DNA of 37,729 bases from an uncultured Staphylococcaceae bacterium (GCA_964392865.1 CAYMRJ010000004.1:1-37729), one strand, 5' to 3'; positions 1 to 17,540 are shown, counted from the first letter of the stretch. A program made the numbers and translations. Notes: a model not told the origin generated them from the sequence alone.

Positions 1-85
1 CATGCGGCATTCGCAGCCCTTCGTCACCACTCATGTGCAGATTTCAGTTCAAAATTTTTCCTCAATCTCTATTTGCAAAATGGAA

Positions 86-113
86 ACGGCCAAAGTGACT
101 GGCCTTTGTTTTT
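86..113. terminator. Possible hairpin terminator downstream of the T5orf172 gene
   Basis: A short stem ggcca(88-92)/tggcc(100-104) is followed on the + strand by tttgttttt. On the minus strand it is followed by a weaker T-rich stretch. Confidence 0.3.
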
Positions 114-129
114 GGAAAAGACGAGTTTC

Positions 130-1611
130 CTACTGTACCTGGAGCCCCATCTCCCCCATTTTCTCTTCCCAAAGGGCCCGGAGGGTTTTGCTTTGGTAGA
201 GGGACTCCAGATGCGTATAGGCATCCGGGCCCTTATGTCCCGTGGCCAATGAAATGAACTCCTCGGGAGGCATTTCCTGATTCTTATATTTCACGACGTT
301 GGTATCGACTATGATGGCCGCCTCTTCTGGACGCTCTACCGAAGCGATCCAATCTCCGATGTTCAAGGCCTCATGCTCCAAGAGCCAGGAGAAGGTCGGA
401 TAGGGAGGATTGTAAGATGAGGCCTTGGACGGGGTTCCACTACTCGATTTGGCGGTAGCCTTGGCGGAAGCGGCGGCTTTGGCTGCCTTCTTTCCTTTTA
501 GCCCAAGGGCCTCCATCTCCTCTTCCCATAGGGTCCAGAGGCTCTTCGAACCGGAACCCATGGTCAGGTTCTTGTAGGTATTGATCGTCTGGTTCCCGGT
601 CGCGACCCTGGCAAAGGCCGGAGGCGTCATGGCCTTCCCTTTGTAGCGCACCGTGCTTTCGGAAACGACGGTCGCGCCCTCCATGGGATCATCAATCAGG
701 AAAACTTTATCGCCGACGGAAACGATGCCATGGTCGACGAGCCAGGAAAACGTCGGAAAAGGCGGATTGTTGCCGCTAACGGTTTTCTTGGCCGGCTCTT
801 CTTTCTTCTTGGCTACGGCCTTTGCCGGAGCGGCTTTCTTGATAGGCTCGGCCTTCTTCTCCGGCAGCGGACTATTTTCGCCGTTAGAGCGGATTCCCGT
901 CTTGGCCTCGTAGATCTGGCGGAGGCTCTTCTGTCCCCAGAGGGGATAAAGATTGCCGAACGCATCGACCTTCGATGTCCCCATGGCCTTCCAAACGAAC
1001 ATCTCCGGGGTCATGCTCTGCCCCTTGTAGCTTAGCGTATCGGCGGAAATGATCCTCGCCGTTTCCTTCTTGAAATTCCCCGAGAGCCTCAGGCTTTCCC
1101 CGATCATCAAGGTGCCTTGGGCGATGAACCAGGATAGGGAAAGTTTCGGCAAGGACGACCCGGCCTCAGACGGGGCACCCCAGTTAGGCGTTGGCTTGGC
1201 TGCCGGTTCCTTAGCAACGGGAGGTTTGGCCTCTTCTTTCTTTTCGGGTGCCTTATTACCGCAGCGGACGACTTTCATCGAAGAGCCGAGCTGTCCCGAT
1301 AGCCGGGCCAAAAGGACGTAGGCCGCGCTTACGTCCATCTTGTGGTAAGGCCGCTCGACCTTGCGGCCGTCCACATAGTCGACGGCCCTTTCTCCCCCGA
1401 ATTTGTCGACCGCATACATGATGAGATCGTCATTGAGCTTTTCGTCCGTTTCGAAATAGGCATAAAGGGAAAAGGAATGGGGGATCCCTTCCAGAGAATC
1501 GAGTTCGGCCAAACGCCTATTGATGTCTTTGGCGTAGCCAAATCTCACGTATCCGGGGAAAGCGGGATTGGTGAGCAGATATACGCACCCCTTTCCCCTT
1601 AAGACCAACAT
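130..1611 (-). CDS. T5orf172/GIY-YIG-like domain protein with three tandem ~85-aa C-terminal modules (DUF4357-like)
   Basis: The N-terminus CVYLLTNPAFPGYVRFGYAKDINRRLAEL matches the T5orf172/GIY-YIG-like pattern. K/A/P/E-rich linkers separate three repeats of FSW(L/F).....(I/L).(I/V)GD......A.(I/V)(V/I)S..T(V/L).YKG..MTP..F......G......Y..L......K(S/T)L..(L/I)(W/Y)E. The ATG at 1611 has an AGAAGGGG RBS. The track start at 1665 is a TTG extension. Confidence 0.7.
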   Translation of the reverse strand: MLVLRGKGCVYLLTNPAFPGYVRFGYAKDINRRLAELDSLEGIPHSFSLYAYFETDEKLNDDLIMYAVDKFGGERAVDYVDGRKVERPYHKMDVSAAYVLLARLSGQLGSSMKVVRCGNKAPEKKEEAKPPVAKEPAAKPTPNWGAPSEAGSSLPKLSLSWFIAQGTLMIGESLRLSGNFKKETARIISADTLSYKGQSMTPEMFVWKAMGTSKVDAFGNLYPLWGQKSLRQIYEAKTGIRSNGENSPLPEKKAEPIKKAAPAKAVAKKKEEPAKKTVSGNNPPFPTFSWLVDHGIVSVGDKVFLIDDPMEGATVVSESTVRYKGKAMTPPAFARVATGNQTINTYKNLTMGSGSKSLWTLWEEEMEALGLKGKKAAKAAASAKATAKSSSGTPSKASSYNPPYPTFSWLLEHEALNIGDWIASVERPEEAAIIVDTNVVKYKNQEMPPEEFISLATGHKGPDAYTHLESLYQSKTLRALWEEKMGEMGLQVQ

Positions 1612-1671
1612 AGCCCCTTCTTTATATCCGCTTTGGGAGTAAGGCACAGCTAGGAAGGCGGGCAAAGCGGA

Positions 1672-1698
1672 TAAAAAAAGACCCCGGTTTCCGGGGTC
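1672..1698 (-). terminator. Rho-independent terminator of lipoprotein gene 1717-2511
   Basis: The minus strand reads gaccccgg-aaa-ccggggtc followed by ttttttt. Confidence 0.85.
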
Positions 1699-1716
1699 CT
1701 TTGGCTATGGCTCTAT

Positions 1717-2511
1717 TTATTCGGCCGAAGGATCGGTCTCGTAGAGGTGGCAGCCGTAGTTGGTGGAGCTGGTGGCGTAGCTGCTGTAACTGGAAGCCGA
1801 GATGGTGTTGTAGGTGCCGTAGGTGCCGAGGAAGTAGACGCCGCTCGTGGTGGTCATGCAGATGTAGGTCGTATCCTCATCGATGTACCAGCGCTCTTCC
1901 GGCTCGTCGGCGACCATGGTCGGGTTCACGTAGTTGCCGCTCACAACGAGGGTCAGCCAGTAGCCGTCATAAGAGGAGGTGCTGTCTTCGATCTGCATCG
2001 TGAAGCCGTCGGAGTATTCGGTGACGGCGATGGTGACGGCCTCATCGAAATCGGTGGTGGTGCCCCAGTAGTAGGTGTTCTGGTAGGTGCCGTTGAAGAA
2101 ATCCCACTGGGTGTTGGCGCCCTGGTAGACGCCGAGCTTCTTATAGGAAAGGACGCCGGCTTCCTTGACGGTGACGGTCAGGGTATCGGTGACTTCGGTT
2201 CCCTCTTCCGCGCCGTTGGCAGTGGCGGTGATGACGGCGGTGCCGGCATCGAGGGCGGTGATGGTCCCGTCTTCGACGGTGAGGATCGTTTCGTCATCGA
2301 CGGTCCAGGTGACGGTGGCGTCGGTAGCGTCTTCCGGGGTGACGACGGCGTAGATTTCGGCCGTATCCCCGACGGTCAACTCGAGCGTTTCGATCTCGGC
2401 GGTCCCATCGGTGATGGCGATCTCGGTGGCGTAGATGGTCTCCGTTCCGCAGCCGGCCAGCACAAGTGTGCCGAGCGCGAGAAGGGAGGCCAGCATGGCT
2501 TTGTTCTTCAC
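1717..2511 (-). CDS. Surface lipoprotein, family A (signal peptide/lipobox + Big_2 Ig-like domain + uncharacterised ~135-aa module)
   Basis: It has a GTG start and the signal peptide KNKAMLASLLALGTLVLAG|CG. The Big_2-like segment is LTVGDTAEIYAVVTPEDATDATVTWTVDDETILTVEDGTITALDAGTAVITATA. The C-terminal module runs YKKLGVYQ...WDFFNG...LYETDPSAE. Confidence 0.85.
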   Translation of the reverse strand: MKNKAMLASLLALGTLVLAGCGTETIYATEIAITDGTAEIETLELTVGDTAEIYAVVTPEDATDATVTWTVDDETILTVEDGTITALDAGTAVITATANGAEEGTEVTDTLTVTVKEAGVLSYKKLGVYQGANTQWDFFNGTYQNTYYWGTTTDFDEAVTIAVTEYSDGFTMQIEDSTSSYDGYWLTLVVSGNYVNPTMVADEPEERWYIDEDTTYICMTTTSGVYFLGTYGTYNTISASSYSSYATSSTNYGCHLYETDPSAE

Positions 2512-2565
2512 TATTCCAATTCTCCTTTGCTTAGGTACCCATCAGTGAATGAGCAGGTACAACGC

Positions 2566-2595
2566 ATTCTAAGGCGTTTGAAGACCCCCCCGCAA
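2566..2595 (-). promoter_or_regulatory. Sigma70-like promoter with a G7 tract at the -35/spacer junction
   Basis: The minus strand reads TTGCGG(2595-2590), an 18-nt spacer, then TAGAAT(2571-2566). A run of 7 G (C7 on + at 2585-2591) spans the -35 end and the spacer start. The architecture is the same as at 4089-4118. Confidence 0.6.
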
Positions 2596-2665
2596 GATGG
2601 GCGATGGGCGAAAGCAGGAGCCTCCGCAAGACGGCTAAAAGCTCATTCAACAGCATAGCAAATAA

Positions 2666-2693
2666 GGAAAAAGCCCCGGGGCGACCCGGGGCC
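2666..2693 (-). terminator. Rho-independent terminator of lipoprotein gene 2717-4033
   Basis: A GC-rich hairpin ggccccggg/cccggggc lies at 2673-2693 and is followed on the minus strand by a T run (A run 2668-2672 on +). Confidence 0.8.
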
Positions 2694-2716
2694 GAAATTC
2701 TCAATCGATCGCTGGA

Positions 2717-4033
2717 TTAGAGGGTCGGATCGACACTGTAAAGACGGGCGATGTAGTAGCTGCTGGAGGTTAGATTGCTCGTGTTGTAGGTGCCAAACGT
2801 GGTGTAGGTTCCGTTGCTGCCGATGAAAAGGTCGTTGGAACCGTTGTTGCCGACGATGGCATAGGCAGAAGATTCGATGGTCCAGGTGAAGGCTTCCTCT
2901 TGGGCAACCAAGTAGGTGCTGCCGGAAGTAAGGGCCAGATAGAATCCGTCGTTATCCCCTCCATCGAATTTGAGGGTGTATCCACCTTCGACGACATTGA
3001 CGACAACATCAACGGCCGTTTCGAAATCGGTAGTCGAAGACCAGAAATTGGTGCTCTTCGCCCCGGTGAAGTAGTAATAGCCGTCCCTTTGGGTCTGATA
3101 CATGCCGAGTTTGTAGCTGGTGCCGTCCTCGGGTTCGATGACGTATTCCAGAGTCGGGCCGTCTTCCGAAACGGTGACGGTCACGGTGTCGGCGACGGTT
3201 TCGCCTTCGGCGGCGCCGTTGGCGGTAGCGGTCAGGGTCGTGGTCCCGACCTTGACGCCGGTAAGGACGCCATCTTCGACGGTGGCAACGGTCTCATCGC
3301 CGACGGTCCAGGTCACGGTGGCATCGGTAACGTAAGCCGGAGTGACGGTAGCGCTCAAAGTGACGGTACCGTCGACGGCCACTTCGATGTCGCCGTTACT
3401 GATGGTGACATCGGTAGCATAGTAGGTCTCGGCGCTCGGATCGGTCTCGTAGAGATAGGCAGCGTAGGTCGTGGCCGAAGTGGCGTAGCTGGAATAAGAA
3501 GAAGCGCTGAAGGTGTCGAAACTATTGTAGTTGCAGATGAAAAGGATGGTTCCGTTATAGGATTCCTTGCAGATATAGCCGTAGGTCTCGTCGATGTACC
3601 AAAGGGCGCTTTCTTCGTCCTCGGTCACGCCGATGTAGTTGGCGCTATCCTGAAGGGTGATGAACTGCCCGTTGATGGAGCTGTCCTCATCGACGATCTG
3701 CATCGAGAAGCCGTCGTCGTATTCGGTAACGAGGAGGTCGGCGGCTTCGCTGAAATCCTGGGTAACGGCCAGATAGTTGCCGCTGGTTTCGCCGGCGAAG
3801 AAATCCCAGTTGCCGTTCCCGGCTTGGAAGTTCCCGAGCTTGTAATAGGTGACTTCGTCATCGCCTCCGCCATCGGTGGAGTCGGTGTCTTCGGTCGAAT
3901 CCGTGCTGTCGACGGTCTCGGTCGTTTCGCTTTCGTCCGTGGCGTCTGTGCTGTCCTCGCCCGTATCGCCGCAGCCGGCCAAAACCAAAGTGCCGATCGC
4001 GAGCAGGGAGGCAAGCAAAGCTTTGTTCTTCAC
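2717..4033 (-). CDS. Surface lipoprotein, family A (module - Big_2 - module)
   Basis: It has a GTG start and the signal peptide KNKALLASLLAIGTLVLAG|CG, followed by an acidic S/T/D/E linker. Module copy 1 runs YYKLGNFQ...LYETDPSAE. The Big_2 segment is VTLSATVTPAYVTDATVTWTVGDETVATVEDGVLTGVKVGTTTLTATA. Module copy 2 runs SYKLGMYQ...RLYSVDPTL. Confidence 0.85.
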   Translation of the reverse strand: MKNKALLASLLAIGTLVLAGCGDTGEDSTDATDESETTETVDSTDSTEDTDSTDGGGDDEVTYYKLGNFQAGNGNWDFFAGETSGNYLAVTQDFSEAADLLVTEYDDGFSMQIVDEDSSINGQFITLQDSANYIGVTEDEESALWYIDETYGYICKESYNGTILFICNYNSFDTFSASSYSSYATSATTYAAYLYETDPSAETYYATDVTISNGDIEVAVDGTVTLSATVTPAYVTDATVTWTVGDETVATVEDGVLTGVKVGTTTLTATANGAAEGETVADTVTVTVSEDGPTLEYVIEPEDGTSYKLGMYQTQRDGYYYFTGAKSTNFWSSTTDFETAVDVVVNVVEGGYTLKFDGGDNDGFYLALTSGSTYLVAQEEAFTWTIESSAYAIVGNNGSNDLFIGSNGTYTTFGTYNTSNLTSSSYYIARLYSVDPTL

Positions 4034-4088
4034 TATGTTTTCTCCTTTATATTAGGTACCAGCCGATAGTGACTAGCAGGTACGTGCC

Positions 4089-4118
4089 ATTCTAGAGCGT
4101 TTTAAGACCCCCCCGCAA
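4089..4118 (-). promoter_or_regulatory. Sigma70-like promoter with a G7 tract at the -35/spacer junction
   Basis: The minus strand reads TTGCGG(4118-4113), an 18-nt spacer, then TAGAAT(4094-4089). The G7 tract is C7 on + at 4108-4114. Confidence 0.6.
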
Positions 4119-4149
4119 GATGGCCTCAGCGCATATTAAAGAGGGTAAC

Positions 4150-4174
4150 GAAAAGGCCCCGGGAGACCGGGGCC
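4150..4174 (-). terminator. Rho-independent terminator of lipoprotein gene 4197-5426
   Basis: The minus strand reads ggccccgg-tctc-ccggggcc followed by tttt. Confidence 0.8.
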
Positions 4175-4196
4175 GCAAAGTCGCTATATGCGCTTA

Positions 4197-5426
4197 TCAG
4201 ACGGTGGGATCGGCCGCGTAGAGGTGGGCCGGGATGCTGGTAGCAGCATAAGTGAAGACGGAAACCCTGAGATCAGTATTGCTGCTGTAGGTGCCGATAT
4301 AGACTTGTTCGCTGGCGGAATTATAGGAATAGATCGCGTAGTTGTCCTCGGCATCGGCCATATACCAAACCGTGGCTTCGGTCTCCGAGAGGGCAGGATT
4401 GCGGTAGCTGCCGGCAGTGGTGGTGATGTAGGAATCGCCGACCTTCATGGTGAAGCCGCCGCCATCGACGAGGGCGATGGTGACGTCGGCAGCCTCGCTA
4501 TAGACCGTGGTCGTATCGAAATAGTAGCCGTTGCTGGTCATTTCCCCGTTGAAGAAATACCAATCGGGAGCGCTGAGGTTCGACTGGTAATAGCCGAACT
4601 TGTAGGTCCCTTCGGCAATCTCGGCATTGGTAACATAGTTATCTTCGACTTCTTCCTCTTCCACGACGATTTCTTCGATATAGGTCCGAGCCTTGAAGAT
4701 TTCGGGGTAGGCCATGGTGCCCCTGTAGCAAGAGAAGCGCGATTGGTTGGTGTTGGTGTTGTAGTTGATGCAGTAGTCGGAATAGCCGGAAGGAACGATG
4801 CTCACGGTGTAGTCTTCGCGCATCTCGATGGTCCATTCAAAGGCACTATCTTGGGTATTCAGGTTGTTGCCGCTGCCAGGGTAATAGAGGTAGCCATCGG
4901 AAACGGCGAGATAGAAAGTCCCTTCGGTTTCGCCTGCCTCGAGGGTGATAATGGCAGTAGAACCATCATAGATATACTCAGTCGTCTCGCTGGTCAGCCC
5001 TTCGACCTCGACGGACGCGCGGTAGGTGCCGTTCTGTTCGCCGATAGCCATGCCGTAGGTACGCGCAGTGATGAGAATCTGATCCCCGGCGGAAAGTTCG
5101 CTCGTATCGGTCACCAAAGTAACGGTGCCGTCTTCGTATTCGACGTCGCCGGTGTCGTCATCGTCGGTGTCGTCATCGTCGTTGTCGCCGGTGTCGTCAT
5201 CGTCGTTGTCGCCGGTGGAATCGGTCGAATCAATGGGATCGGTGGACTCGGTCGATTCGGTGGATTCCGTGCTGTCGGTGGATTCCGTGCTGTCGGTGGA
5301 TTCGACGGTTTCGGAGGTTTCGCTTTCTTCGGCGACCTCGGAGGTTTCGCTGGCTTCTTCGCCGCAGCCGGCCAGCACAAGTGTGCCGATCGCGAGCAAG
5401 GAAGCGAGCAAGGCTTTCTTCTTCAC
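4197..5426 (-). CDS. Surface lipoprotein, family A (long acidic repeat linker, diverged module, C-terminal module)
   Basis: The preferred start is GTG at 5426, giving VKKKALLASLLAIGTLVLAG|CG. It has an AAGGAG RBS 7-8 nt upstream, and this start and leader are homologous to the two paralogs. The track ORF start at 5504 adds an unlikely 26-aa extension. The C-terminal module runs TYKFGYYQ...WYFFNG...HLYAADPTV. Confidence 0.8.
   Translation of the reverse strand: MKKKALLASLLAIGTLVLAGCGEEASETSEVAEESETSETVESTDSTESTDSTESTESTESTDPIDSTDSTGDNDDDDTGDNDDDDTDDDDTGDVEYEDGTVTLVTDTSELSAGDQILITARTYGMAIGEQNGTYRASVEVEGLTSETTEYIYDGSTAIITLEAGETEGTFYLAVSDGYLYYPGSGNNLNTQDSAFEWTIEMREDYTVSIVPSGYSDYCINYNTNTNQSRFSCYRGTMAYPEIFKARTYIEEIVVEEEEVEDNYVTNAEIAEGTYKFGYYQSNLSAPDWYFFNGEMTSNGYYFDTTTVYSEAADVTIALVDGGGFTMKVGDSYITTTAGSYRNPALSETEATVWYMADAEDNYAIYSYNSASEQVYIGTYSSNTDLRVSVFTYAATSIPAHLYAADPTV
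5145..5310. repeat. In-frame tandem repeats encoding the acidic linker of the lipoprotein
   Basis: The unit ggtgtcgtcatcgtc(gttgtcgcc) is reiterated across 5145-5215, encoding GDNDDDDT-type repeats. The 18-bp unit ggtggattccgtgctgtc occurs at 5259-5276 and 5277-5294 plus a partial copy, encoding STESTD repeats. Confidence 0.8.
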
Positions 5427-5492
5427 TATTTCTTTCTCCTTTATAAGGACTGGCCAGTGAATGCCAGCCGGCATGAGTTTCTTATAGAAAGA

Positions 5493-5504
5493 CCCCCCCG
5501 TCAA
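5493..5504 (-). promoter_or_regulatory. TTGACG -35-like box fused to a G7 tract upstream of lipoprotein 4197-5426
   Basis: The minus strand reads TTGACG(5504-5499) followed by Gs, 7 G in total (C7 on + at 5493-5499). I could not find a properly spaced -10. TATAAG lies only 12 nt downstream. Confidence 0.3.
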
Positions 5505-5646
5505 TGCCCGAAAGGCTCTTTAATGCGTGAATGAAAAGAAAGCAACCATCGGGATTTTTTCACGCCGTGAGGCATCTTTGGAAACGATTTCGAATTGATC
5601 CCGTGCAAACCAAAGCGAAGCATTCCTTTCCAAAATTGAACTCAGA

Positions 5647-5672
5647 TAAAAAGGCCGGCTCCCTGCCGGCCT
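5647..5672 (-). terminator. Rho-independent terminator after gene 5701-6204
   Basis: The minus strand reads aggccggc-aggga-gccggcc followed by ttttt. Confidence 0.8.
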
Positions 5673-5700
5673 CCATTGCTATCTAATTCCGGATTTAAGC

Positions 5701-6204
5701 CTAAGGATTCTTCCTGCCTTTGAAGCACCAGACAAGCAGGGAGACCACTCCCACGACCCAAAAAAGAATCCCAAGCATGAAAGCGACTATCGAGAATATC
5801 TCTCCTCCGTTATATGACGAAGTGCCCCAGGCCAGACAGAAGAAACCCCCGCAAAGGATGAAATCGCAAAAGAAGAATATATTCTTCTTTTCGGCCGGGC
5901 TCATCTTGCGGACCGGGCGGCGCTTGGAAGGAATGTTGACCTTGGCGATTTCGGCGGTCTTGGCATCCTTTTCGGCCTTGGCCGCTTCGACGTCCCCGGC
6001 CCTTGCGTATTTCGAACACCAGCCACCGCACTTGACGAAGCCGTTCCCCTTTTCGGAGCGCTCGTTGGTGCAGAACCCTTCGGCATCGACCTTGAAATAA
6101 GGCATTCCCAAAAGGTTGCTTTCTTTCTTCCTTGCCCCGGCGTAATGGGCGCAGCTCCAGCACTTCTTCTCCCCGAGGCCGCTTTTTCTCTCGGTATCGC
6201 TCAT
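5701..6204 (-). CDS. Cys-rich (zinc-ribbon-like) protein with two C-terminal TM helices
   Basis: The N-terminal part is CWSC...C...C(GGW)C, followed by a Lys/Ala-rich linker. Two hydrophobic helices follow: NIFFFCDFILCGGFFCLAW and IFSIVAFMLGILFWVVGVVSLLVW. Its ATG overlaps the upstream TGA as ATGA at 6201-6204. Confidence 0.65.
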   Translation of the reverse strand: MSDTERKSGLGEKKCWSCAHYAGARKKESNLLGMPYFKVDAEGFCTNERSEKGNGFVKCGGWCSKYARAGDVEAAKAEKDAKTAEIAKVNIPSKRRPVRKMSPAEKKNIFFFCDFILCGGFFCLAWGTSSYNGGEIFSIVAFMLGILFWVVGVVSLLVWCFKGRKNP

Positions 6205-7094
6205 AGATCCTCTTCCCTCAAGGGAATGCTTATTTCGGGCTGGACGAGGCGCCAGATCCTGGCCCTGAGATTGTCGTCATAGCCATCGGAGACGAAGACG
6301 CCGGCAAAGCGCTTATGCCAGTAGCCGAAGGCATCGCGTTCCTTGACGAAGGTAATCCGCTTCTCCTTTGCCAAAGTGCTTTTTTCGGTCCATTTGATGA
6401 ACTCCTCGTCCCAACTGCGAACGCTGGGCCTTTCGTAGATGATCGAATGGCTCTTATTGAAGATGTTCTGCCAGCCCCGGCGGTCGGTCAGCGTCCCGTC
6501 CTCGCCCTCATAGCTGACGACTGGAAACCAAAGGTTCTTGTACATCCCCCTCTGATAGCCTTTGTAGTTCTTTCCATAGACGACGTTGATGATTTCCCTG
6601 TTGCTGGAAAAGCGATCGTCGATCCGGATGCTTCCTCTGGCCTTGATGGCCTCGAGCTTTTCCTCGTCGCTTTCCCATTTCAGAGGCTCCGAGCGCTTGG
6701 CGATCTTCTCCTTTATGATGGCGGCGACCCGATCCATTTCCCCGTTGATGCCCTCTAGATCCGTGCCATAGGCCTTGATCCGATAGAAAGCGACATCGGA
6801 AGCCAGCGTTTCGCCTTTGGCGGCCCGCTTGATCTCTTCTTCCCTTTTCCTATCGCTTTTGATGGCCTCTTCCCCGGCATGCTGGCCTTCGTCCACCTCG
6901 ATGGCAATCTCCAGCTGCGGGAGATAGAGATCGATGAGGCGATAGGACCCATTGTCCGAGGAAACGTACTTCTGGGTCTCGATCAAAAGGTCGGGATCGG
7001 CGATGCGGTGGTAGATCCCGTTGATGACGTAGTTCTCGTAGACCTTCTTCAAGCCGCGCCCGAGAGAATGGGCGACGTAGTCAAGTTTATCCAT
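6201..7094 (-). CDS. PvuRts1I/AbaSI-family modification-dependent (5hmC-type) restriction endonuclease-like protein
   Basis: It is 297 aa. The N-terminal part KKVYENYVINGIYHRIADPDLLIETQK....IDLYLPQLEIAIEVDEGQH resembles, from my memory, the Vsr-like nuclease half of PvuRts1I (HYIINRV.H.L.DPD...; LFPQL.L.LEIDE.HH). The C-terminal half (LWFPVV...; RFAGVF) resembles the SRA-like half. The length also matches the family. Confidence 0.65.
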   Translation of the reverse strand: MDKLDYVAHSLGRGLKKVYENYVINGIYHRIADPDLLIETQKYVSSDNGSYRLIDLYLPQLEIAIEVDEGQHAGEEAIKSDRKREEEIKRAAKGETLASDVAFYRIKAYGTDLEGINGEMDRVAAIIKEKIAKRSEPLKWESDEEKLEAIKARGSIRIDDRFSSNREIINVVYGKNYKGYQRGMYKNLWFPVVSYEGEDGTLTDRRGWQNIFNKSHSIIYERPSVRSWDEEFIKWTEKSTLAKEKRITFVKERDAFGYWHKRFAGVFVSDGYDDNLRARIWRLVQPEISIPLREEDL

Positions 7095-7120
7095 TGGGGC
7101 CCCTCTTTCTTTCGTTGAAA

Positions 7121-7147
7121 ATTCTAGGCCCCCCCCGGAGAAATCAA
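7121..7147 (-). promoter_or_regulatory. Candidate promoter of the restriction gene with a G8 tract in the spacer
   Basis: The minus strand reads TTGATT(7147-7142), then tctccGGGGGGGGcc (15 nt), then TAGAAT(7126-7121). This lies about 27 nt upstream of the ATG at 7094, and a GAAAGAGGGG RBS lies in between. The G8 tract is C8 on + at 7129-7136. Confidence 0.45.
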
Positions 7148-7234
7148 GGGCGCCATTCCGGGCGCCGAATGTCCCGAATGGCTCAAATGAGGGCTAATTT
7201 CGAAAGAACGTTTTCATCCGATTGCAGCGGGGCG

Positions 7235-7442
7235 TTTCCAACTTTTGACGCTTTTTGTTTCCAATTTTTGACGCTTTTTGTTTCCAACTTTTGACGGATT
7301 CCGTTTCCAGTTTTTGATGGATTCCGTTTCCAAGATTTGGAGTATTTCATTTCCAAGATTTGGAGTATTTTGGTTCCAAAATTTGGAGCATTTCGTTTCC
7401 AAGATTTGGAGTTTTTTGCTTCCAAGATTTGGAGTGTTTTCT
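7235..7442. repeat. Intergenic tandem array, 9 units of 22-24 bp (period 23)
   Basis: Units 1-4 (7235-7326) read tttccaayttttgayg(c/g).... Units 5-9 (7327-7442) read tttccaagatttggagt....., each with the palindrome TCCAA-gat-TTGGA. Degenerate copies continue to about 7490. Confidence 0.9.
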
Positions 7443-7510
7443 TTCGGTTCTTGGGCCTTGTGCCTTCCGGCTTCTTTGGAATCCAGTGCCAGATTGCGGG
7501 GATTCCACCG

Positions 7511-7536
7511 AAGAAAAGGCTGCACTTAGCAGCCTT
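7511..7536 (-). terminator. Rho-independent terminator of gene 7559-8221
   Basis: The minus strand reads aaggctgc-taagt-gcagcctt followed by ttcttc. Confidence 0.6.
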
Positions 7537-7558
7537 ATCCATTCTTTAAGAAACGCCC

Positions 7559-8221
7559 TTACGAAAGTGGATCGCCTTCTCCGTCTTCTCCAACTCCGGG
7601 AGGGTTTCCGTAGAGGCCTTCGATCTTCTTATCGTAGAAGTAGCCCTGCCCCTTTTGGGCCTGGGCTCTTTTATAGGCGATCGAATTGCGCCCCAAGACC
7701 CGGTAGAAGGAATAGTAGAGATAGATCACCGAAATGAAGAACCAAGGGACATAGATCCCGAGGAAATACCAAGGGACGATATGGACCGTGAAGTAGTTCC
7801 CGTAATCGGTGAAGGTCGTCGTGAAATTCGCGGCGATCGAAAAGGCGATGGCCATTAGCAAGATGGGAAGCAGGAACAAGGCCGGGTAATAGGGTTTCCG
7901 GAAGACCCGGTATTTCCTTTCTAGGAAAATGACCCTCATAAAGCAGATTGCCCCGATGGCGTAATAAAGAAGGATCATGCAGAAGAAAGTAATGGCGAAG
8001 GCATTGGAAAAGTTATAGCCGACGAAGGTCATGAAGCCTCCGGCCCCGAACCAAAACATGAAGCAGGCGATGGTATGGCCCGCAAGCCTACCGGGAACCT
8101 TCGGATTCTCGACGGCGATGGCTTTGAGCTTCTCCTCGTCGATGATCCTTTCTTCGAATTTCCTCTTCTCTTTCTTCCCTTCCATTTCAGGCACGTTACC
8201 AAAAAGCGAGGAACGGTTCAC
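7559..8221 (-). CDS. Multi-pass membrane protein of unknown function
   Basis: A charged N-terminus (EGKKEKRKFEER) is followed by about 4 aromatic-rich hydrophobic helices. The start is uncertain: GTG at 8221 or ATG at 8185, and neither has a clear RBS. Confidence 0.55.
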   Translation of the reverse strand: MNRSSLFGNVPEMEGKKEKRKFEERIIDEEKLKAIAVENPKVPGRLAGHTIACFMFWFGAGGFMTFVGYNFSNAFAITFFCMILLYYAIGAICFMRVIFLERKYRVFRKPYYPALFLLPILLMAIAFSIAANFTTTFTDYGNYFTVHIVPWYFLGIYVPWFFISVIYLYYSFYRVLGRNSIAYKRAQAQKGQGYFYDKKIEGLYGNPPGVGEDGEGDPLS

Positions 8222-8225
8222 TAGG

Positions 8226-8258
8226 CAAAGAAAAGCCGCGGCCTAAACCGGCCGCGGC
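8226..8258 (-). terminator. Rho-independent terminator of lipoprotein 8283-10547
   Basis: The minus strand reads gccgcggcc-ggtttag-gccgcggc followed by ttttcttt. Confidence 0.8.
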
Positions 8259-8282
8259 TATCAAAAGGATTTACCCCTATGT

Positions 8283-10547
8283 TTAGGCGGTATAAGCACC
8301 GAAACAGACGTAGAAATAGGAGAACATGCCGGTCGAAGCATAGACCCTGACGGTGTAGGTCTTGCCGTCTACGCTCTTTTCCCAGCCATCGTCCGTCTCG
8401 CTCCAGCCATCCGCCTCGGTAAGGACGGCGGAAGCGGCGGTTTTGACCAGATCGGTCCCGAGCGAACTGCTGACATACATGCCGGAATCGTACTGGAGGG
8501 CGTATTCGTAGTAGCCCTCGGCGGAAAGAACGGTCGAACTCGAGACCTTCCAGCCGTAGGCGGTGTTGAAATAGGGGATGTAGGTATCCAATTCTTGGGT
8601 GGAAACGATGCCATCGTAGGAGCTTGTATCGAAGTCGGAGAGAAGAGTTCCCCAGCTTCCGTCAATGACATAGAAGTAAACCCGCAGGTACATGCCGCTC
8701 ACTTCAAGCCTCATGCCGTATTTGCCATCGGTGCTAAGGAAATTGCGGTAAGCGTCAGAGGCGGAAGTCCCGTTTTCGACGAAGCCGCTTTCCAAGATGG
8801 TTTCGGCATATTCGGCCGCGAAGCTGGTAGCGGTAGCGTTGCCGGGCATCACGTAGTAGCAGATGGAACTTTCGGAAGAAAGCGAGGAATAAAGGGTCCA
8901 GGTATATCCACTTGGATTGTAGAAAGGAACGACATCTTCGAAGGCGACTTGGTCGTCTTCCGCCAAGGCGCCATTGAGGTGTCCGCTCCAGGTCTCGAGG
9001 GTATCCTCATCGAGGATATCGGCCCAAGAAAGCCCAGCTTCGAGATCGTCCTCGTAGCCGTAATCGGTAATGTCGATGGTGGTCGAGTTGATGTCCTTGA
9101 AGGTGACGTTGTAGTTATAAGGCCAATCGCCGATGTTATAGAGGAAGCTGATTTTCGGATTGGCAGTGGTGCCGCTGATGGTCAAAGGATAGGCATCGAC
9201 GTCTCCGCCGCCCCAATCGTAGCTGATGTCGAAGAAGCCATCCGGATAGACGTCTTCGAGAAGCCCGTAGATCGGCAAGAGATACTTGAAGTACTCGGTC
9301 CCGAATTCTTCTTTGAGTTCATAACTGCTGCCGTTCACGTCGAAGAACTGCTGGGCGACGTCATAGTCCGGGGTCACCCCTTCCCCGACGCTTGCGAAGT
9401 AGGCATCGACGGCATTGCCTTCGATAGGTTCGCTCGTCTGGTAGAAGGCATTGCCGGTGCTGCTAAGGCCGTCGAAGGTCACATAGCTATCCCCGACTTG
9501 GAGGGTCCCGCGGTGGGTCGGGCTGCTGGTATAGGTATTCTTGGCATAGACGCCGACCCCATCGACAACCTTGATTTCCCACATGCCCTCGTAGCTGCTA
9601 TAGCTGCTATAGCCAAGATATGCCGTATAGCTCGTGGCGTTCTGGAGGGTTTCGAGGATCTCGCCGACTCCGTCTTGCCCTTCTTCGTCGGGATAGGGTT
9701 CGACGCCCCAATCGAGGCCCTCTTCCAAGGAGGAAGGTTCCACGAAATCGAGATCGATCGAAAGGATGTAGGTGTAGCCCATCATCTCGGCCCAGCCGAC
9801 CGAGAATAGGCTTACGGGAGAAAGATTCTCGTCGAAGACGACATCATAGGACTCATAGGTAACGTAGTAGTCTTCGGAAGGTTCGGTGAGAGCAAAGAGG
9901 ACAGAGAGGCCGTCGCTGACGTCTGAAGCAAAGAGCGAAAGGGTGAGGGTTTCGGCATCCCAAATGACGCTGCTCTCGTCGATATTGGCAAAGGGTTGAT
10001 AGTAGACGTCGCTATAGGCAATGGGGTCCCCGTTTTCGTCGGTCTCGTTCACGTACGTAACGGTGTTGTCCCTTCCGAGGCTCCTGGTGGCCAGATAGCC
10101 GCCGTTATTTTCGTAGACGGCGAGCGGGGCGATGGTTCCGACGGCAGTTCCATCGGATCCTTCGGAAACGCCGTGGTAGAAATACTCGTCGGTATAGATG
10201 CCGGTCATCCCGTAATAGTCAAGGGCGCCCAACTCCGGGAAATTGATCATGGCGATGCCGCTTAGGGCAACGGATCCAAGGCCCTTGAGGGCAGCGATGG
10301 CATCTTCTTCCGAAAAAGAGGTTTCGGGGTCGTCTGAGGAAGACGTCTCGCCAGGGACTTCGTCCGAGGAGGAATCGTCGGGGCTCTCGTCCGAGGAACT
10401 TTCCCCGGAAGAAACGTCATCCGATGCCGTCGATTCGGTGACGCTGCTTTCCTCGCTTCCGGTGGTTGCTGTAGTTCCCGAACAGGAACTAAGGACGAGG
10501 CCGGAAGCAAGCAGGCAGATAGCCAATGCTTTCGTTCTAGATTTCAT
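8283..10547 (-). CDS. Large surface lipoprotein, family B (754 aa)
   Basis: The signal peptide is MKSRTKALAICLLASGLVLSS|CS, followed by an acidic Ser-rich linker. The N-terminal half is paralogous to 12689-14140 (DWG(V/I).PY.DEEGQDGVGEIL..LQ.ATSY; GYLA.RS...DNTV.Y). The C-terminal half carries modules like those of 10850-12571. Confidence 0.85.
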   Translation of the reverse strand: MKSRTKALAICLLASGLVLSSCSGTTATTGSEESSVTESTASDDVSSGESSSDESPDDSSSDEVPGETSSSDDPETSFSEEDAIAALKGLGSVALSGIAMINFPELGALDYYGMTGIYTDEYFYHGVSEGSDGTAVGTIAPLAVYENNGGYLATRSLGRDNTVTYVNETDENGDPIAYSDVYYQPFANIDESSVIWDAETLTLSLFASDVSDGLSVLFALTEPSEDYYVTYESYDVVFDENLSPVSLFSVGWAEMMGYTYILSIDLDFVEPSSLEEGLDWGVEPYPDEEGQDGVGEILETLQNATSYTAYLGYSSYSSYEGMWEIKVVDGVGVYAKNTYTSSPTHRGTLQVGDSYVTFDGLSSTGNAFYQTSEPIEGNAVDAYFASVGEGVTPDYDVAQQFFDVNGSSYELKEEFGTEYFKYLLPIYGLLEDVYPDGFFDISYDWGGGDVDAYPLTISGTTANPKISFLYNIGDWPYNYNVTFKDINSTTIDITDYGYEDDLEAGLSWADILDEDTLETWSGHLNGALAEDDQVAFEDVVPFYNPSGYTWTLYSSLSSESSICYYVMPGNATATSFAAEYAETILESGFVENGTSASDAYRNFLSTDGKYGMRLEVSGMYLRVYFYVIDGSWGTLLSDFDTSSYDGIVSTQELDTYIPYFNTAYGWKVSSSTVLSAEGYYEYALQYDSGMYVSSSLGTDLVKTAASAVLTEADGWSETDDGWEKSVDGKTYTVRVYASTGMFSYFYVCFGAYTA

Positions 10548-10779
10548 GTCTTTTCCTTTTGTTTCTAAAGTGGCCTCAGAGGCCTTCGCTAAAATAAAGG
10601 CCTTTCGCTAGATTTCAAATCAAAATTGAATGTCAAAGCTTAATTTTTAGGAATTTCAAAAATCAGGTTCTTTCGAAGTAAATGCCTATATTTCAAGAAT
10701 CATTCGACTGGGGCAAGACCAATCATTTCTGCCACAGATACTAATTTAACTCCATTATCAAAAAGGGATTTTTCTTTCG

Positions 10780-10807
10780 TTGAAAAGTTGAAACCCTTAC
10801 TTAGAAT
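10780..10807 (+). promoter_or_regulatory. Sigma70-like promoter for the plus-strand lipoprotein gene
   Basis: It reads TTGAAA(10780-10785), a 16-nt spacer, then TAGAAT(10802-10807). It lies about 43 nt upstream of the ATG at 10850 in an AT-rich divergent intergenic region. Confidence 0.5.
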
Positions 10808-10849
10808 GGTGCGGTTTGGGCGTTGCCCAACATGGAAAATGAATCAAGT

Positions 10850-12571
10850 ATGAAAAGTATCAAGAATATCCTCCTGGCCCTCGCCTTGGCCGTCCCCGTT
10901 CTCTCTTCCTGCGGAGGAACGGACACAGCGAGCGAAGAATCGGATACCGTCATCTCCTCGGATAGCGAGATCTCGGTTTCAACGGATTCCTCGTCCGAAA
11001 GCACCGATGCGTCTACCAGCACCGGAGGCGTAACCGCCGCCACTGGCTGGAGCGAAGCCGATGCCGAGCTGATGGTTTCGATCATCGGCCACGAGATCCC
11101 CTTCTACGATTTCGCTAGCCAAGGCCTGACGTATTCTTTTTCCACTGCCACGGGAAGCGATGGAAGCGACGTCTTGGTTCTGGAAGCCAGATCCTGCAGC
11201 ACGACCGTAAGGGACGAATTCATCGCCGCCCAAATCGACTTCGGCTACGAAGACCAAACCGACTCCTATGCTTCCCTCTACGGAGACGATTGGGTCGAGG
11301 GGACCACGATGCTTTATGCCATGTATAGCGATCTTTGGGCCGTCCAAGCGCAGATCTTTCTCTATAACGTCTTCGGCGGCATCATCTCCGGAGAATCCTC
11401 AACGCGAGGCATCCTTTATGCCTACTTCTTCCCCGTCATGATCCCCTCTTCTACCTGGCCCGGCGAAGAAATGGAAGCCGCCATCCAAGACGCAAATTCG
11501 ATGAATCTCGGCAGCGCCTCTCTCGTGACCCCGAGCGACGAACTGGCGGCGAATAGGAACTACGCCTTCGTCCAGGCCACCGATTCTTACTGGAACTACT
11601 ACGTACTTCTATATGTCACCGGTGACTTCACCGGCTATATCGATGAGCTGGTTTCGGCCGGCTGGAAGATCGTCCCCGATCTAGCCGAAGGGACGACCTA
11701 CCTCTATCAGCCCGGCACTTCCCTCGGCGTCTACGTCTATGACTACGACGAGGAAAACGACATCACCTACCTCCAGTTCGGCAAGAACTACTACCTAATA
11801 GACTGGCCGACCCAAGATATCGACTCCCTTCTCGATACCTATACCGACGATGCGGACCACACCCAGTTCCCCGCTTTCAGCGAATCCGGGGTCTATGAGT
11901 TCTATAGCTATTCAAACGGCCAGTTCGCCATCTACGTCTATAACGTGACCGAGGAGGAATACGAAGCCTATAAGCAGACCCTTCTTAGTGCCGGCTTCAC
12001 CGACGGCGAGTGGTTCTATGGCTCCGGCACCTACGTCGATCCCCTAAGGGAATACATCGTCACCTTGGAATACGGGGTCTACGAAGGCATGGGCTACCTC
12101 GTCATCTCGACCCAGACCGTCCCGACCAACTACCACACCTCCTGGGATAGCGAGATCCAAAGCACGATCGAGGGCTACTTCGCTTCTTACGGGGCCACTG
12201 GCTTCGAGGCCACCCTCCCGCAACCTTCCTTCTCCTTCTACTACGTCGCCGCCAGCGTCGACGAAACCTACGGGACATTGACCCTCAACATCATGGACTA
12301 TGACGAAAGCGGCTCCCTCGTGGCCCACGCTTCGGATTATCTGTCCCAGCTACTCGAAAGCGGCTGGTACTACGTCGAAGGCTCGGAATCCGATAGCACT
12401 TATATGGGCGCCACCGTCTATAGCGATACGGCCACCGATAGCATGGTCTTCTACATCGAAGAGTGGTCCCGCTGGGGCACGACCGTCGTCGTCCAGCCCT
12501 ATAGCGTCACCGGCAATAGCTCTTCTTCCTATAGCGAAACCCCTACAAGCTATCCGGTCCTCGCCATCTGA
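10850..12571 (+). CDS. Surface lipoprotein, family B-related (four ~120-aa modules)
   Basis: The preferred start gives MKSIKNILLALALAVPVLSS|CGG. The track start at 10823 is a TTG, and another ATG lies at 10832. An acidic linker follows. Repeated modules start W(S/P).(E/Q)(A/E/D).. and contain Y...L(L/V)(S/E)(A/S)G(F/W). Confidence 0.8.
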   Translation: MKSIKNILLALALAVPVLSSCGGTDTASEESDTVISSDSEISVSTDSSSESTDASTSTGGVTAATGWSEADAELMVSIIGHEIPFYDFASQGLTYSFSTATGSDGSDVLVLEARSCSTTVRDEFIAAQIDFGYEDQTDSYASLYGDDWVEGTTMLYAMYSDLWAVQAQIFLYNVFGGIISGESSTRGILYAYFFPVMIPSSTWPGEEMEAAIQDANSMNLGSASLVTPSDELAANRNYAFVQATDSYWNYYVLLYVTGDFTGYIDELVSAGWKIVPDLAEGTTYLYQPGTSLGVYVYDYDEENDITYLQFGKNYYLIDWPTQDIDSLLDTYTDDADHTQFPAFSESGVYEFYSYSNGQFAIYVYNVTEEEYEAYKQTLLSAGFTDGEWFYGSGTYVDPLREYIVTLEYGVYEGMGYLVISTQTVPTNYHTSWDSEIQSTIEGYFASYGATGFEATLPQPSFSFYYVAASVDETYGTLTLNIMDYDESGSLVAHASDYLSQLLESGWYYVEGSESDSTYMGATVYSDTATDSMVFYIEEWSRWGTTVVVQPYSVTGNSSSSYSETPTSYPVLAI

Positions 12572-12587
12572 CGCATAAAAAGCAAAA

Positions 12588-12613
12588 GAACCGCGGTTCT
12601 GCCGCGGTTTTCT
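12588..12613. terminator. Bidirectional terminator between convergent lipoprotein genes
   Basis: The stem aaccgcgg(12589-12596)/ccgcggtt(12602-12609) is followed by ttttct on the + strand and by ttcttttgcttttt on the - strand. Confidence 0.8.
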
Positions 12614-12688
12614 ATTGATTGGGCGATTATTGCGAGGTTTATCCAAACCCGGTTTTGCGGGGAACTTATTCAAGATTGCCTTCCGGCC

Positions 12689-14140
12689 TTAGGCCTCGCT
12701 AGGAAGGGAAACGCTCAATTCCGTTTCGTTCAAGGCACTGAATTGAGCGGTCAAGGAGAAATACGAATCCGAAGTTCCGTATAGGAAGGCCATCTTCGGA
12801 TTTTCGACCGTGCCGGCGATGGCCAAATCCCCGTTGCCCATTGGCTTGTAATCGCAGAAATCGTGATCGACGCTAAGAAAAAGGTAATCCAGATAGAATC
12901 GGCATAACGGGACGAGCCATTTATGGAATTCGGTACCGAATTCAACTTTCGTCACATAGGCTCTTTCGGGCGCCAATAAGCTATCGTCGTCAACCACATC
13001 GAAGAATTGCTGGGCCACGCCGAAGTCGGGGGTGACGCCGGCGCCATAGGTTTCGAAATAGATGTCCACCGCATCCCCCTCGATCGGATCGCTGTAGACG
13101 AGGCTGTCGTCGGAAGGATCGCTCATGAAAGGGACGCAGTAATCCCCGTCTTGGAGGAAGCCCAAGCAGGCATAGGGCGTTTGCTGAACAGAGTCGCGGA
13201 CCACGACCCCTTTCCCGTAAACGACTTCCATCGTGTAATTGGCTCCTTCGTAGGAAACGGAATAGCTGGTCGCTTCCTGGAGGGCCTTGAGGATCTCCCC
13301 GACCCCGTCTTGCCCTTCTTCGTCTCCGTAAGGCTTTATGCCCCAGTCGATCGTTTCTAAGACGCTGCTTTCCTCGATGAAAATTCCGACATAGGCGAGT
13401 TCTTCGCCGCTAGCCGCGATGGAGAGGGGGACGTAACCTTCGCCGAATTCGATGGTTATGGAAGAGACCTCATCCTGCAAAGCTTCCGGCAGGATGAGGT
13501 CGAGCAGGACCTCCATGCCCGCGGCATCGAAGGCAAGGACCGAATCCTCATAGGAGGCATTCTCTTCGCTTAAGGCTTCGAAGGGATTTCCGTAATAGGG
13601 AATCGGTTCGCCTTCTTCGTCGGTCAAGGCCTCATAGGCAACGGTGTTGTCGCGGTTGAGGCCGCTTCTAATCGCCAAATAGCCTTCGTAATTCTCGTAA
13701 AGGGTAGTCGTGGCTTCCGGCTTTGATTCTTCTTCCCCGCTTCCGGGATCGAAATCGAAGTCGACCAGGCCGGAGCCGATGACATCGCTTGCTTGGCCGC
13801 TTTCTTCTCCACCGTCGGGATCTGCTTCTTCGTCCATTTCATCGATGGCGCTTTCAAGGCATTCGGCTCTCTGATAGAAATACCCGGCCGTGTAGGCGGA
13901 GAGAACCGAATAGGTCCCTTCTTCCGTAACGGCAGTCCCTTCGATGGCGACCGAATCCAAGGCCTGGAGGGCTTCGATGGCAATCGTTGCCTCGCTTTCG
14001 ATAAGCGTGGTGTCTGGGCTTTCTTCCGGGGTTTCGCCAATGCTTTCGATGGAGGTTCCGCCGACCGTTCCGCTGCATGCGGAAAGGGAAATTCCGGCGG
14101 CCAAGAGGCCGATGCTCAATACTTGTTTCGTGTTCTTCAT
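12689..14140 (-). CDS. Surface lipoprotein, family B (paralog of the N-terminal half of 8283-10547)
   Basis: The preferred ATG at 14140 gives MKNTKQVLSIGLLAAGISLSA|CSG. The track start at 14161 adds 7 aa. Shared blocks with the 754-aa protein are listed under that feature. Confidence 0.85.
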   Translation of the reverse strand: MKNTKQVLSIGLLAAGISLSACSGTVGGTSIESIGETPEESPDTTLIESEATIAIEALQALDSVAIEGTAVTEEGTYSVLSAYTAGYFYQRAECLESAIDEMDEEADPDGGEESGQASDVIGSGLVDFDFDPGSGEEESKPEATTTLYENYEGYLAIRSGLNRDNTVAYEALTDEEGEPIPYYGNPFEALSEENASYEDSVLAFDAAGMEVLLDLILPEALQDEVSSITIEFGEGYVPLSIAASGEELAYVGIFIEESSVLETIDWGIKPYGDEEGQDGVGEILKALQEATSYSVSYEGANYTMEVVYGKGVVVRDSVQQTPYACLGFLQDGDYCVPFMSDPSDDSLVYSDPIEGDAVDIYFETYGAGVTPDFGVAQQFFDVVDDDSLLAPERAYVTKVEFGTEFHKWLVPLCRFYLDYLFLSVDHDFCDYKPMGNGDLAIAGTVENPKMAFLYGTSDSYFSLTAQFSALNETELSVSLPSEA

Positions 14141-14231
14141 AGATTTCCTGTCTATAGGCAAAATACAGGAAAAGCCGCCGCATTAAAACGATTCGGCGAT
14201 TTCTTTGCCCCTCCGCTAAGGCAAAAGATGA

Positions 14232-15692: not shown

Positions 15693-15753
15693 GGTTTCGG
15701 GGACTTATCCTTTCCAACCTGATTATAAACCGAAGGGGATATGGGCAGGTTTG

Positions 15754-16953: not shown

Positions 16954-17109
16954 GGTTTTTCCTCTGGAATCATTGTATCAGGGAAATGATCCCTTGATTG
17001 GTTTCTTACGTTTTTCCGGTTTTTATTTAGGTGGCTTAAGGTCTTTTTACGCTTTCTCGTATTTCCTTAAAGGAAGAAAAACAATCGATGTTGTCTATAT
17101 TTCGATGGG

Positions 17110-17178
17110 CGATTCCCGTATTTGTCCGTTTTCGATTCCCGCTTTTGTCTGAAATTCATTCCCTCTATTCAAAAAGTT
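17110..17178. repeat. Three-unit 23-bp tandem repeat
   Basis: The units are cgattcccgtatttgtccgtttt (17110-17132), cgattcccgcttttgtctgaaat (17133-17155) and a degenerate third, tcattccctctattcaaaaagtt. Confidence 0.7.
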
Positions 17179-17281
17179 GACAATATCCCACTCTCCCCAA
17201 TCTCGGCGTGTTTCTCTTTCCCGGTTGCTCGGTAATTCGTTTTTTTCTTTTCTTCGAATTCTATTTCCTTGATTGGTGAAG

Positions 17282-17443
17282 TTTCATCGGAAAGACGGAT
17301 AAAAATTCAACTGATGAAAACGTTCGAATTTATCTGGCTATTTTCATCGAATTATCTCATTCGGCGAAAAATTTTTATCTCATTCGGCGGAAATTTTTTA
17401 TCTCATTTGGCGACAGTTTTTAGAGTCAGGTGGCAGTAACCAC
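17282..17443. repeat. Intergenic tandem array with 23-bp period (3 near-identical core units, about 4 degenerate flanking units)
   Basis: The core units are ttatctcattcggcgaaaaattt (17352-17374), ttatctcattcggcggaaatttt (17375-17397) and ttatctcatttggcgacagtttt (17398-17420). The flanking 23-24-bp units share TTATCT or TTCATCG fragments. Confidence 0.85.
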
Positions 17444-17498
17444 TCCACTCAAATCATGTTTTGGAGAATAGTGGTTGCGCACCCGATTCCTTGGGAAA

Positions 17499-17526
17499 CA
17501 AAAGAAAAATCCCGATTCCTCGGGAT
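17499..17526 (-). terminator. Rho-independent terminator downstream of tRNA-Thr
   Basis: The minus strand reads atcccga-ggaa-tcgggat followed by ttttcttt. Confidence 0.75.
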
Positions 17527-17540
17527 CCGTTTCCTTTTGC

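Follow-up and report, generated by a model that had tools for sequence, protein, structure and literature searches.

In Neisseria meningitidis, a homopolymer between the -35 and -10 promoter elements (poly-G in porA, poly-C in opc) sets their spacing, and expression is graded, as in a rheostat. In the mycoplasma Vlp lipoproteins, the tract between -35 and -10 is a poly-A of about 17-20 nt. A G tract studied in Bifidobacterium breve is reportedly intragenic and controls sortase-dependent pili rather than lipoproteins. Here we describe three tandem lipoprotein genes, g1, g2 and g3, each preceded by a candidate promoter with a run of seven G (G7) at its -35-like element. They lie on the minus strand of a 37,729-nt stretch of DNA deposited under an uncultured Staphylococcaceae bacterium (GCA_964392865.1, CAYMRJ010000004.1:1-37729), which was analysed at full length and is called the window below. 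An earlier annotation made from the DNA itself, the sequence-only reading, had proposed a phase-variable surface-protein family. By the known logic of slippage, the locus is a credible candidate for a contingency locus, and the tract of g3 differs by one G between assemblies.

Vlp and Vmm lipoproteins of mycoplasmas are switched by homopolymer or repeat tracts in promoter spacers (PMC10502178). Like the trio, Vlp of Mycoplasma hyorhinis is encoded by tandem lipoprotein genes with a conserved block of promoter, 5' untranslated region (UTR) and signal peptide, and with one transcript per gene. Whereas the promoter homopolymer sets the ON/OFF state in Vlp (PMC10502178), switching in the trio is predicted from sequence, and Vlp-like in-frame repeat size variation occurs on a small scale and in g3 only. 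The trio further differs from Vlp in its tract, which is short (7-8 G) and lies at the edge of the -35-like element, in its mature proteins, which consist of folded Big_2 and beta-trefoil-like domains rather than long repeats, and in its host, which belongs to uncultured gut Bacilli and not to Mycoplasmatales. Vmm of Mycoplasma mycoides is also a surface lipoprotein switched by promoter-spacer repeat indels (PMC10502178), but its repeat is a TA dinucleotide and a single gene is concerned.

With Neisseria porA and opc the trio would share a G/C homopolymer in the promoter, between -35 and -10, although its genes are not homologous to porA or opc. The Neisseria tracts, in contrast, are 9-15 nt long, demonstrably hypervariable, and control single outer-membrane protein genes of a Gram-negative pathogen. 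Tracts down to 7 G/C are treated or measured as phase-variable in Campylobacter jejuni and Mycobacterium tuberculosis (PMC4965091; PMC10334774), the latter having regulatory tracts upstream of espA. Unlike those of the trio, the tracts of these two species are mostly intragenic frameshift switches. In the gut commensal B. breve, one study reports that a surface structure is varied by G-tract slippage (PMC9187656).

Three lipoprotein cassettes and their promoter-region G tracts

The cassettes are built alike, as the sequence-only reading had described. All three open reading frames (ORFs), found by reading both strands, start GTG-AAG-AA at 8-10 nt from an AAGGAG ribosome-binding site, and sequence reading together with a terminator scan placed a GC-rich hairpin and T run downstream of each gene (Table 1). 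The signal peptides, 22 residues long with lipobox LAGC, follow the pattern VK(N/K)KA(M/L)LASLLA(L/I)GTLVLAGCG. Their near identity extends to the nucleotide level, as had been claimed, with 83-88% identity over 66 nt between the genes. Since each pair has 4-8 synonymous codon differences, this points to conservation at the protein level and not to very recent gene conversion. We read g1, g2 and g3 as tandem paralogues, each predicted to form a separate transcription unit.

In all three cassettes an uninterrupted G7 abuts a -35-like hexamer of the form TTGNNG and fills the first part of the spacer. On the coding strand, g1 and g2 have the layout TTGCGG-GGGGG-TCTT...(18-nt spacer)...TAGAAT, exactly as reported before. 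It is plausible that the tracts mark the -35/spacer junction of sigma-A-type promoters. Four of the seven TAGAAT copies in the window are at promoter-like positions, and the hexamer is also -10-like before two other genes, at 7126 and 10802. The g3 sequence reads TTGACG-GGGGGG-TCTTTC-TATAAGAAACT. Here the earlier description, TTGACG joined to G7 with no correctly spaced -10 element, holds for the junction and for the good -10-like hexamer TATAAG (5481-5486), which is only 11 nt away (12 nt with G8), but a weak GAAACT (5476-5481) does lie at 17 nt, or at 18 nt with G8. A second copy of TCTTGCGG is present at 2620-2632, about 30 nt upstream of the g1 -35-like hexamer (CCGTCTTGCGGAGG versus CCATCTTGCGGGGG); it could be a regulator-binding site.

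The conserved 5'-UTR box of the sequence-only reading is present as well, and its description was corrected: the box, (U/G)UCAC, sits in the loop of a small hairpin in the leaders of g1, g2 and g3. The fold energies of these hairpins are no better than those of shuffled sequences (z -0.1 to -0.9). In a related strain (contig L105, introduced below) one stem pair of the g3 hairpin is changed from C-G to U-A, a compensatory change. The TTG at 5502-5504, within the g3 -35-like hexamer, opens a 435-aa ORF that runs through G7 in frame with g3 and is probably incidental.

Long G/C runs are rare in this DNA. Exactly four of at least 7 nt occur in the window, namely the three tracts (C7 on the strand given) and a C8 at 7129-7136 in front of a restriction gene, in keeping with the earlier statement that no others exist. 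A first-order Markov model predicts 9.0 such runs, and for runs of at least 6 nt it predicts 30.7 where 5 were observed, an approximately six-fold depletion. All four long runs fall within 5.5 kb and in promoter-like intergenic DNA, non-coding DNA being 10.4% of the window, and no G/C run of at least 7 nt was present in 35.8 kb from the two nearest relatives. The 11-mer GGGGGGGTCTT has exactly three occurrences in the window. On its own this count does not reach significance, as three or more matches with 1 mismatch were obtained in 15 of 100 shuffles, and the copies belong to paralogous genes. Because G7 is uninterrupted in all three paralogues even though their synonymous sites have diverged, its conservation suggests that the tract is maintained.

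Tract length in related assemblies

Independent Logan assemblies of the locus, consensus contigs from three sequencing runs, were recovered by exact-protein look-ups; a literature search for the run numbers found nothing. The comparison spans about 7 kb, and look-ups with two larger neighbouring genes found no further assemblies. Contigs L003 (SRR7039256_465593, 5,941 nt) and L005 come from the same run, L105 and L106 (SRR7039261) are about 6% diverged, and L001 (SRR7039258) represents another lineage, with 14 differences to L106 in 573 positions.

L003 aligns to window positions 7136..1197 over 5,940 bp without a mismatch; the one difference is an indel, G8 instead of G7 at the g3 tract. L005 is identical to window positions 8362..7181. 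Elsewhere in the L003 overlap the homopolymers agree with the window, both at six A/T runs of 6-7 nt and at the two remaining G7 tracts, which argues against a general homopolymer error. Tract bases make up about 29 of the 5,940 bp, so that a single difference placed at random would, by our estimate, hit one of them in about 0.5% of cases. At the level of assembled consensus, the g3 tract is length-polymorphic. Of the length heterogeneity that the sequence-only reading had proposed to look for, consensus sequences thus reveal that of g3 (7, 8, 8), and none at g1 (7, 7, 7, 7) or g2 (7, 7, 7).

The surrounding promoter hardly changes. Tract length aside, a single substitution, in the g2 spacer of L001, is all that separates the -35 to -10 cores of the assemblies, and the DNA flanking the core promoters differs by 2-6% between strains. 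When metagenome contigs were searched with the promoter pattern and a variable G length, the 18 matches were all unrelated chance matches, and a signal-peptide DNA pattern had no matches there. A signal-peptide pattern scan of species-representative genomes returned 222 pattern matches, none of which was confirmed; the species is apparently missing from that collection.

Proposed slippage and competing explanations

To the view that the poly-G is a slipped-strand-mutable site at the -35/spacer junction that changes promoter spacing, most likely as a slow rheostat or contingency site, we give about even chances. The tract would then be the most mutable site of the locus. Replication slippage would add or remove one G and so alter the -35/-10 spacing, which at g1 and g2 is 18 nt with G7 and at g3, measured to the weak GAAACT, 17 or 18 nt. 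The changed spacing would tune or switch the transcription of each gene independently, presumably in a reversible manner, and the population would become heterogeneous in its surface-lipoprotein repertoire, which could be useful for evading phage or host. We infer slippage as the cause of the g3 polymorphism. As there are only 7-8 G, the switch would probably be slow, which favours a rheostat or contingency site over a high-frequency ON/OFF switch.

Several points weigh against this view. The promoters were assigned from sequence alone and the -10 element of g3 is ambiguous; a simple promoter scan did not call these promoters, TTGCGG having only 3 of 6 matching positions. A length of seven G lies near the lower limit for mutable tracts, and a 7G tract in M. 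smegmatis had a +1 frameshift rate of only 3.1e-8 per generation (PMC10334774), which is far less than in classical phase variation. In C. jejuni, loci are counted as phase-variable from polyG/C of 7 or more (PMC4965091), a threshold that the G7-G8 tracts reach. The g1 tract is G7 in four of four assemblies and that of g2 in three of three, about three other lineages and diverged strains included, so fast ON/OFF switching is not shown for these two; since a consensus hides minority alleles, their constancy neither proves nor excludes switching. Finally, the G7/G8 difference is known from assembled consensus, the window possibly stems from the same run as L003, and only four assemblies of the species group were found.

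The constancy at g1 and g2 would also be expected if the G7-TCTT block were a fixed cis-element, either part of the -35/spacer region or a regulator site, held by purifying selection, with the g3 indel as a rare neutral event in the least-constrained copy. This is a possible explanation, to which we give clearly less weight than to slippage. It fits the near-invariant core promoter, with its one substitution in the L001 g2 spacer, as well as the slippage rate, which may be low at G7 (PMC10334774), and the second TCTTGCGG copy upstream of g1 hints at a protein-binding motif. On the other hand, the sole difference in 5.9 kb between two assemblies falls in the tract, where such runs are otherwise avoided, as in this genome, a homopolymer would be a strange element to conserve, and an unrelated neighbouring gene has G8 at the equivalent spacer position. 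The genes could instead be ordinary paralogous lipoprotein genes and the length difference an assembly or sequencing artefact, since homopolymers are prone to error, the consensus contigs come from different assemblers and possibly from the same reads, and the end of L003 near the restriction-gene G8 could mark a drop in coverage, the break of L005 at 7181 being unexplained. We regard this as unlikely: G8 at g3 was found in two independent runs and strains, all other homopolymers in the 7.1-kb overlap agree perfectly, and De Bruijn contigs hold only k-mers that are present in reads.

Two further explanations leave promoter spacing aside. The 435-aa ORF from the TTG ending at 5504 passes through the tract and is in frame with g3 at G7 and shifted by G8, which raises the question of a role of the g3 tract in translation. 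Such a role is very improbable, as this TTG lacks a ribosome-binding site, the GTG start that g3 has in common with g1 and g2 follows a strong AAGGAG at 9 nt, g1 and g2 have no such extension, and G8 appears to be the common state. Tandem lipoprotein genes with a conserved 5' block also recall site-specific inversion or promoter shuffling of the M. pulmonis vsa, M. bovis vsp or M. agalactiae vpma type, in which the block would be the recombination site. Even less credence is due here, because g1, g2 and g3 all point the same way and each has its own promoter-like module, none of the window ORFs that were scanned against Pfam had a recombinase domain, and gene order is identical in all assemblies. 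The invertible-promoter model was rejected since no inverted repeats flank the promoters.

Encoded proteins, host and genomic neighbourhood

Big_2 (PF02368) was the only Pfam or NCBIfam family found in the trio, scoring above the Pfam gathering threshold of 22.8 in g1 (30.4 bits, E=3.9e-7) and g2 (43.5 bits); g3 had no Pfam match, Big_2 included. A domain of about 145 residues, called domain X here, is C-terminal in all three proteins, has two copies in g2 (X1 and X2) and has no match in Pfam or NCBIfam. Searching with a profile built from its four copies in the window yielded 1,246 cluster representatives at an E of 1e-3 or better, most of them with 2-7 copies in large proteins and about half with a lipobox-like N-terminus. 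For an AlphaFold2 (AF2) model of domain X (predicted local distance difference test, pLDDT, 93.6), the best PDB matches in Foldseek were all beta-trefoils, among them the lysenin C-terminal domain, IL-1 and the botulinum HA33 lectin, with modest scores (TM 0.45-0.56, E 6e-3 or worse). Judged by this profile and model, domain X looks like a widespread, repeated, beta-trefoil-like surface domain without a name, for which a role in ligand or glycan binding is a reasonable inference. Because Big_2 is combined with beta-trefoil-like modules, a lectin-type fold, the three proteins are probably surface-anchored adhesins or ligand-binding proteins. For the middle domain of g3 a few homologues were found and the AF2 model was unusable (pLDDT 43); a PDB sequence search with g3 gave no matches, and a homologue search with g3 gave no further close relatives.

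L001 shares 97-100% identity with the window in the promoter, UTR and signal-peptide blocks. The X2 domain of g2 (L001 1922-2389) has 53-72% DNA and 49% protein identity between these strains, and the g3 middle domain is 52-74% identical. Synonymous divergence (dS) is about 1.0 and nonsynonymous divergence (dN) about 0.45 in X2, against a dS of 0.12-0.16 in the rest of g2. This contrast suggests that the domain was replaced by recombination with a deeply diverged allele, and the pattern fits such recombinational replacement better than simple positive selection. The acidic linker of g3 varies in repeat size: L105 (about 1580-1710) is missing one 18-nt unit (ESTDST) and has 6 extra nt (two residues) in the D-rich repeat. 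As read from these sequences, mosaic domain divergence and in-frame repeat changes are hallmarks of exposed, diversifying surface proteins.

The mature regions had been described as mosaic and repeat-containing. Mosaic is apt for the domain divergence between strains, and repeats are found in the acidic linker of g3 and weakly in g2, but the mature parts are built from globular, folded domains and not from long repeats. The proposed likeness to mycoplasma variable lipoproteins (Vlp, Vsp, Vsa) is therefore one of conserved cassette architecture, in which a lipobox signal peptide and a conserved 5' cassette are common to tandem paralogues. It does not extend to a mature region made mainly of in-frame tandem repeats, and there is no sequence homology to Vlp, Vsp or Vsa, the nearest genomes being metagenome-assembled genomes (MAGs) of uncultured Bacilli.

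The window is part of a chromosome and also contains gal genes, malQ, a MiaB-like gene and a cardiolipin synthase gene. MalQ has matches of 69% and 66% identity in two MAGs (one labelled uncultured Bacilli, the other uncultured bacterium) and is 49% identical to a protein of 'Candidatus Enteromonas'. The latter is placed in RFN20/CAG-826, with a GC content of up to 57% (PMC8035907), a family predicted to lack peptidoglycan (PMC10868615) and related to Mycoplasmatales. We tentatively assign the host to an uncultured Bacilli MAG lineage near RFN20, the RFN20 placement coming from one protein, and the host may have no cell wall. Kinship of RFN20/CAG-826 to Mycoplasmatales and its predicted lack of peptidoglycan make the mycoplasma analogy biologically reasonable.

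The lipoprotein cluster is part of a variable/defence island, within positions 1-17614 of the window, that adjoins a tRNA-Thr gene (17541-17614) and holds several defence genes (Table 1). The syntenic loci of the two nearest genomes, the source of the 69% and 66% MalQ matches (L006, L007), have neither the island nor the lipoprotein cluster. The gene for the PvuRts1I-like restriction enzyme is preceded by TTGATT, a 15-nt spacer containing the G8 run and TAGAAT. As assembled this spacer is too short; G9-G10 would make it 16-17 nt. Contig L003 starts exactly at this run, which fits a branch of the assembly graph there, and a second break lies 44 nt upstream, where L005 ends at 7181. Judging from this arrangement, the gene may encode a phase-variable Type IV restriction enzyme. 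Between the restriction gene and a gene for a 208-aa membrane protein lies a tandem array (7233-7445) with about 8 copies of a 23-nt unit; each unit holds a small palindrome (TCCAA..TTGGA) without an Rfam match, and an Rfam search of the whole window found nothing.

The four tracts together might form a poly-G 'phasome' in the defence island that independently tunes three lipoproteins and the PvuRts1I-like enzyme in a possibly wall-less, RFN20-like host. We consider this doubtful. If it were true, the lipoproteins would be candidate phage receptors or decoys, receptor variation would be coupled to variation of intracellular phage defence, and no simple-sequence contingency system would have been reported before from the RFN20-like lineage.

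Table 1. Features of the lipoprotein locus and its surroundings (window coordinates; tract lengths in nt per assembly)
Feature	Position	Strand	Details	Basis
g1, lipoprotein gene	1717..2511	-	264 aa; signal peptide with LAGC, Big_2 (residues 42-107), domain X (~118-264)	ORF list
g2, lipoprotein gene	2717..4033	-	438 aa; signal peptide, acidic linker, X1 (58-201), Big_2 (207-278), X2 (288-438)	ORF list
g3, lipoprotein gene	4197..5426	-	409 aa; signal peptide, acidic repeat linker, middle domain (~94-246), domain X (260-409)	ORF list
g1 promoter G7 tract	2585..2591	-	first G is last base of -35-like TTGCGG (2590-2595); length: window 7, L003 7, L001 7, L106 7	
g1 -10-like TAGAAT	2566..2571	-	18 nt downstream of TTGCGG	
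g2 promoter G7 tract	4108..4114	-	-35-like TTGCGG at 4113-4118; length: window 7, L003 7, L001 7 (L105/L106 do not cover)	
g2 -10-like TAGAAT	4089..4094	-	18 nt downstream of TTGCGG	
g3 promoter-region G7 tract	5493..5499	-	-35-like TTGACG at 5499-5504; length: window 7, L003 8, L105 8 (L001 does not cover)	
g3 candidate -10 elements	5476..5486	-	TATAAGAAACT	sequence reading
g1 ribosome-binding site	2522..2527	-	AAGGAG	sequence reading
g2 ribosome-binding site	4042-4047	-	AAGGAG	sequence reading
g3 ribosome-binding site	5436-5441	-	AAGGAG	sequence reading
g1 5'-UTR hairpin	2535..2560	-	loop UUCAC	folding
g2 5'-UTR hairpin	~4050-4080	-	loop GUCAC	folding
g3 5'-UTR hairpin	~5448-5469	-		folding
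g1 intrinsic terminator	1672..1700	-	GACCCCGG-AAA-CCGGGGTC then T7	read by eye
g2 intrinsic terminator	2665..2693	-		terminator scan
g3 intrinsic terminator	4148..4174	-		terminator scan
Domain X, g1	1720-2160	-		
Domain X copies, g2	2720-3172 and 3425-3862	-		
Domain X, g3	4200-4649	-		
In-frame tandem repeats, g3 acidic linker	5154-5217	-	24-nt units	Tandem Repeats Finder (TRF)
In-frame tandem repeats, g3 acidic linker	5257-5303	-	18-nt units	TRF
Island defence gene	130-1665		PDC-S57 candidate	
Island defence gene	6201-7094	-	PvuRts1I-like/SRA methyl-directed restriction enzyme, mREase_II	
Island defence gene	14232-15692		AlbA_2/Schlafen-HTH protein	
Island defence gene	15754-16953		PDC-S01	

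The concept of a slippage-controlled promoter is classical. The lineage, the island context with its restriction-gene tract, and the thin but direct evidence of polymorphism make the locus worth pursuing as a candidate that is easy to test. Should the tracts prove not to be switches, it would be a tidy paralogous lipoprotein cluster with a conserved promoter. The locus also draws attention to the unnamed, widespread beta-trefoil-like domain X. If the tracts do switch expression, slipped-strand contingency loci, a class defined in pathogens, would extend to uncultured, genome-reduced gut commensals related to mycoplasmas, whose contact with host and phage probably runs mainly through surface lipoproteins.

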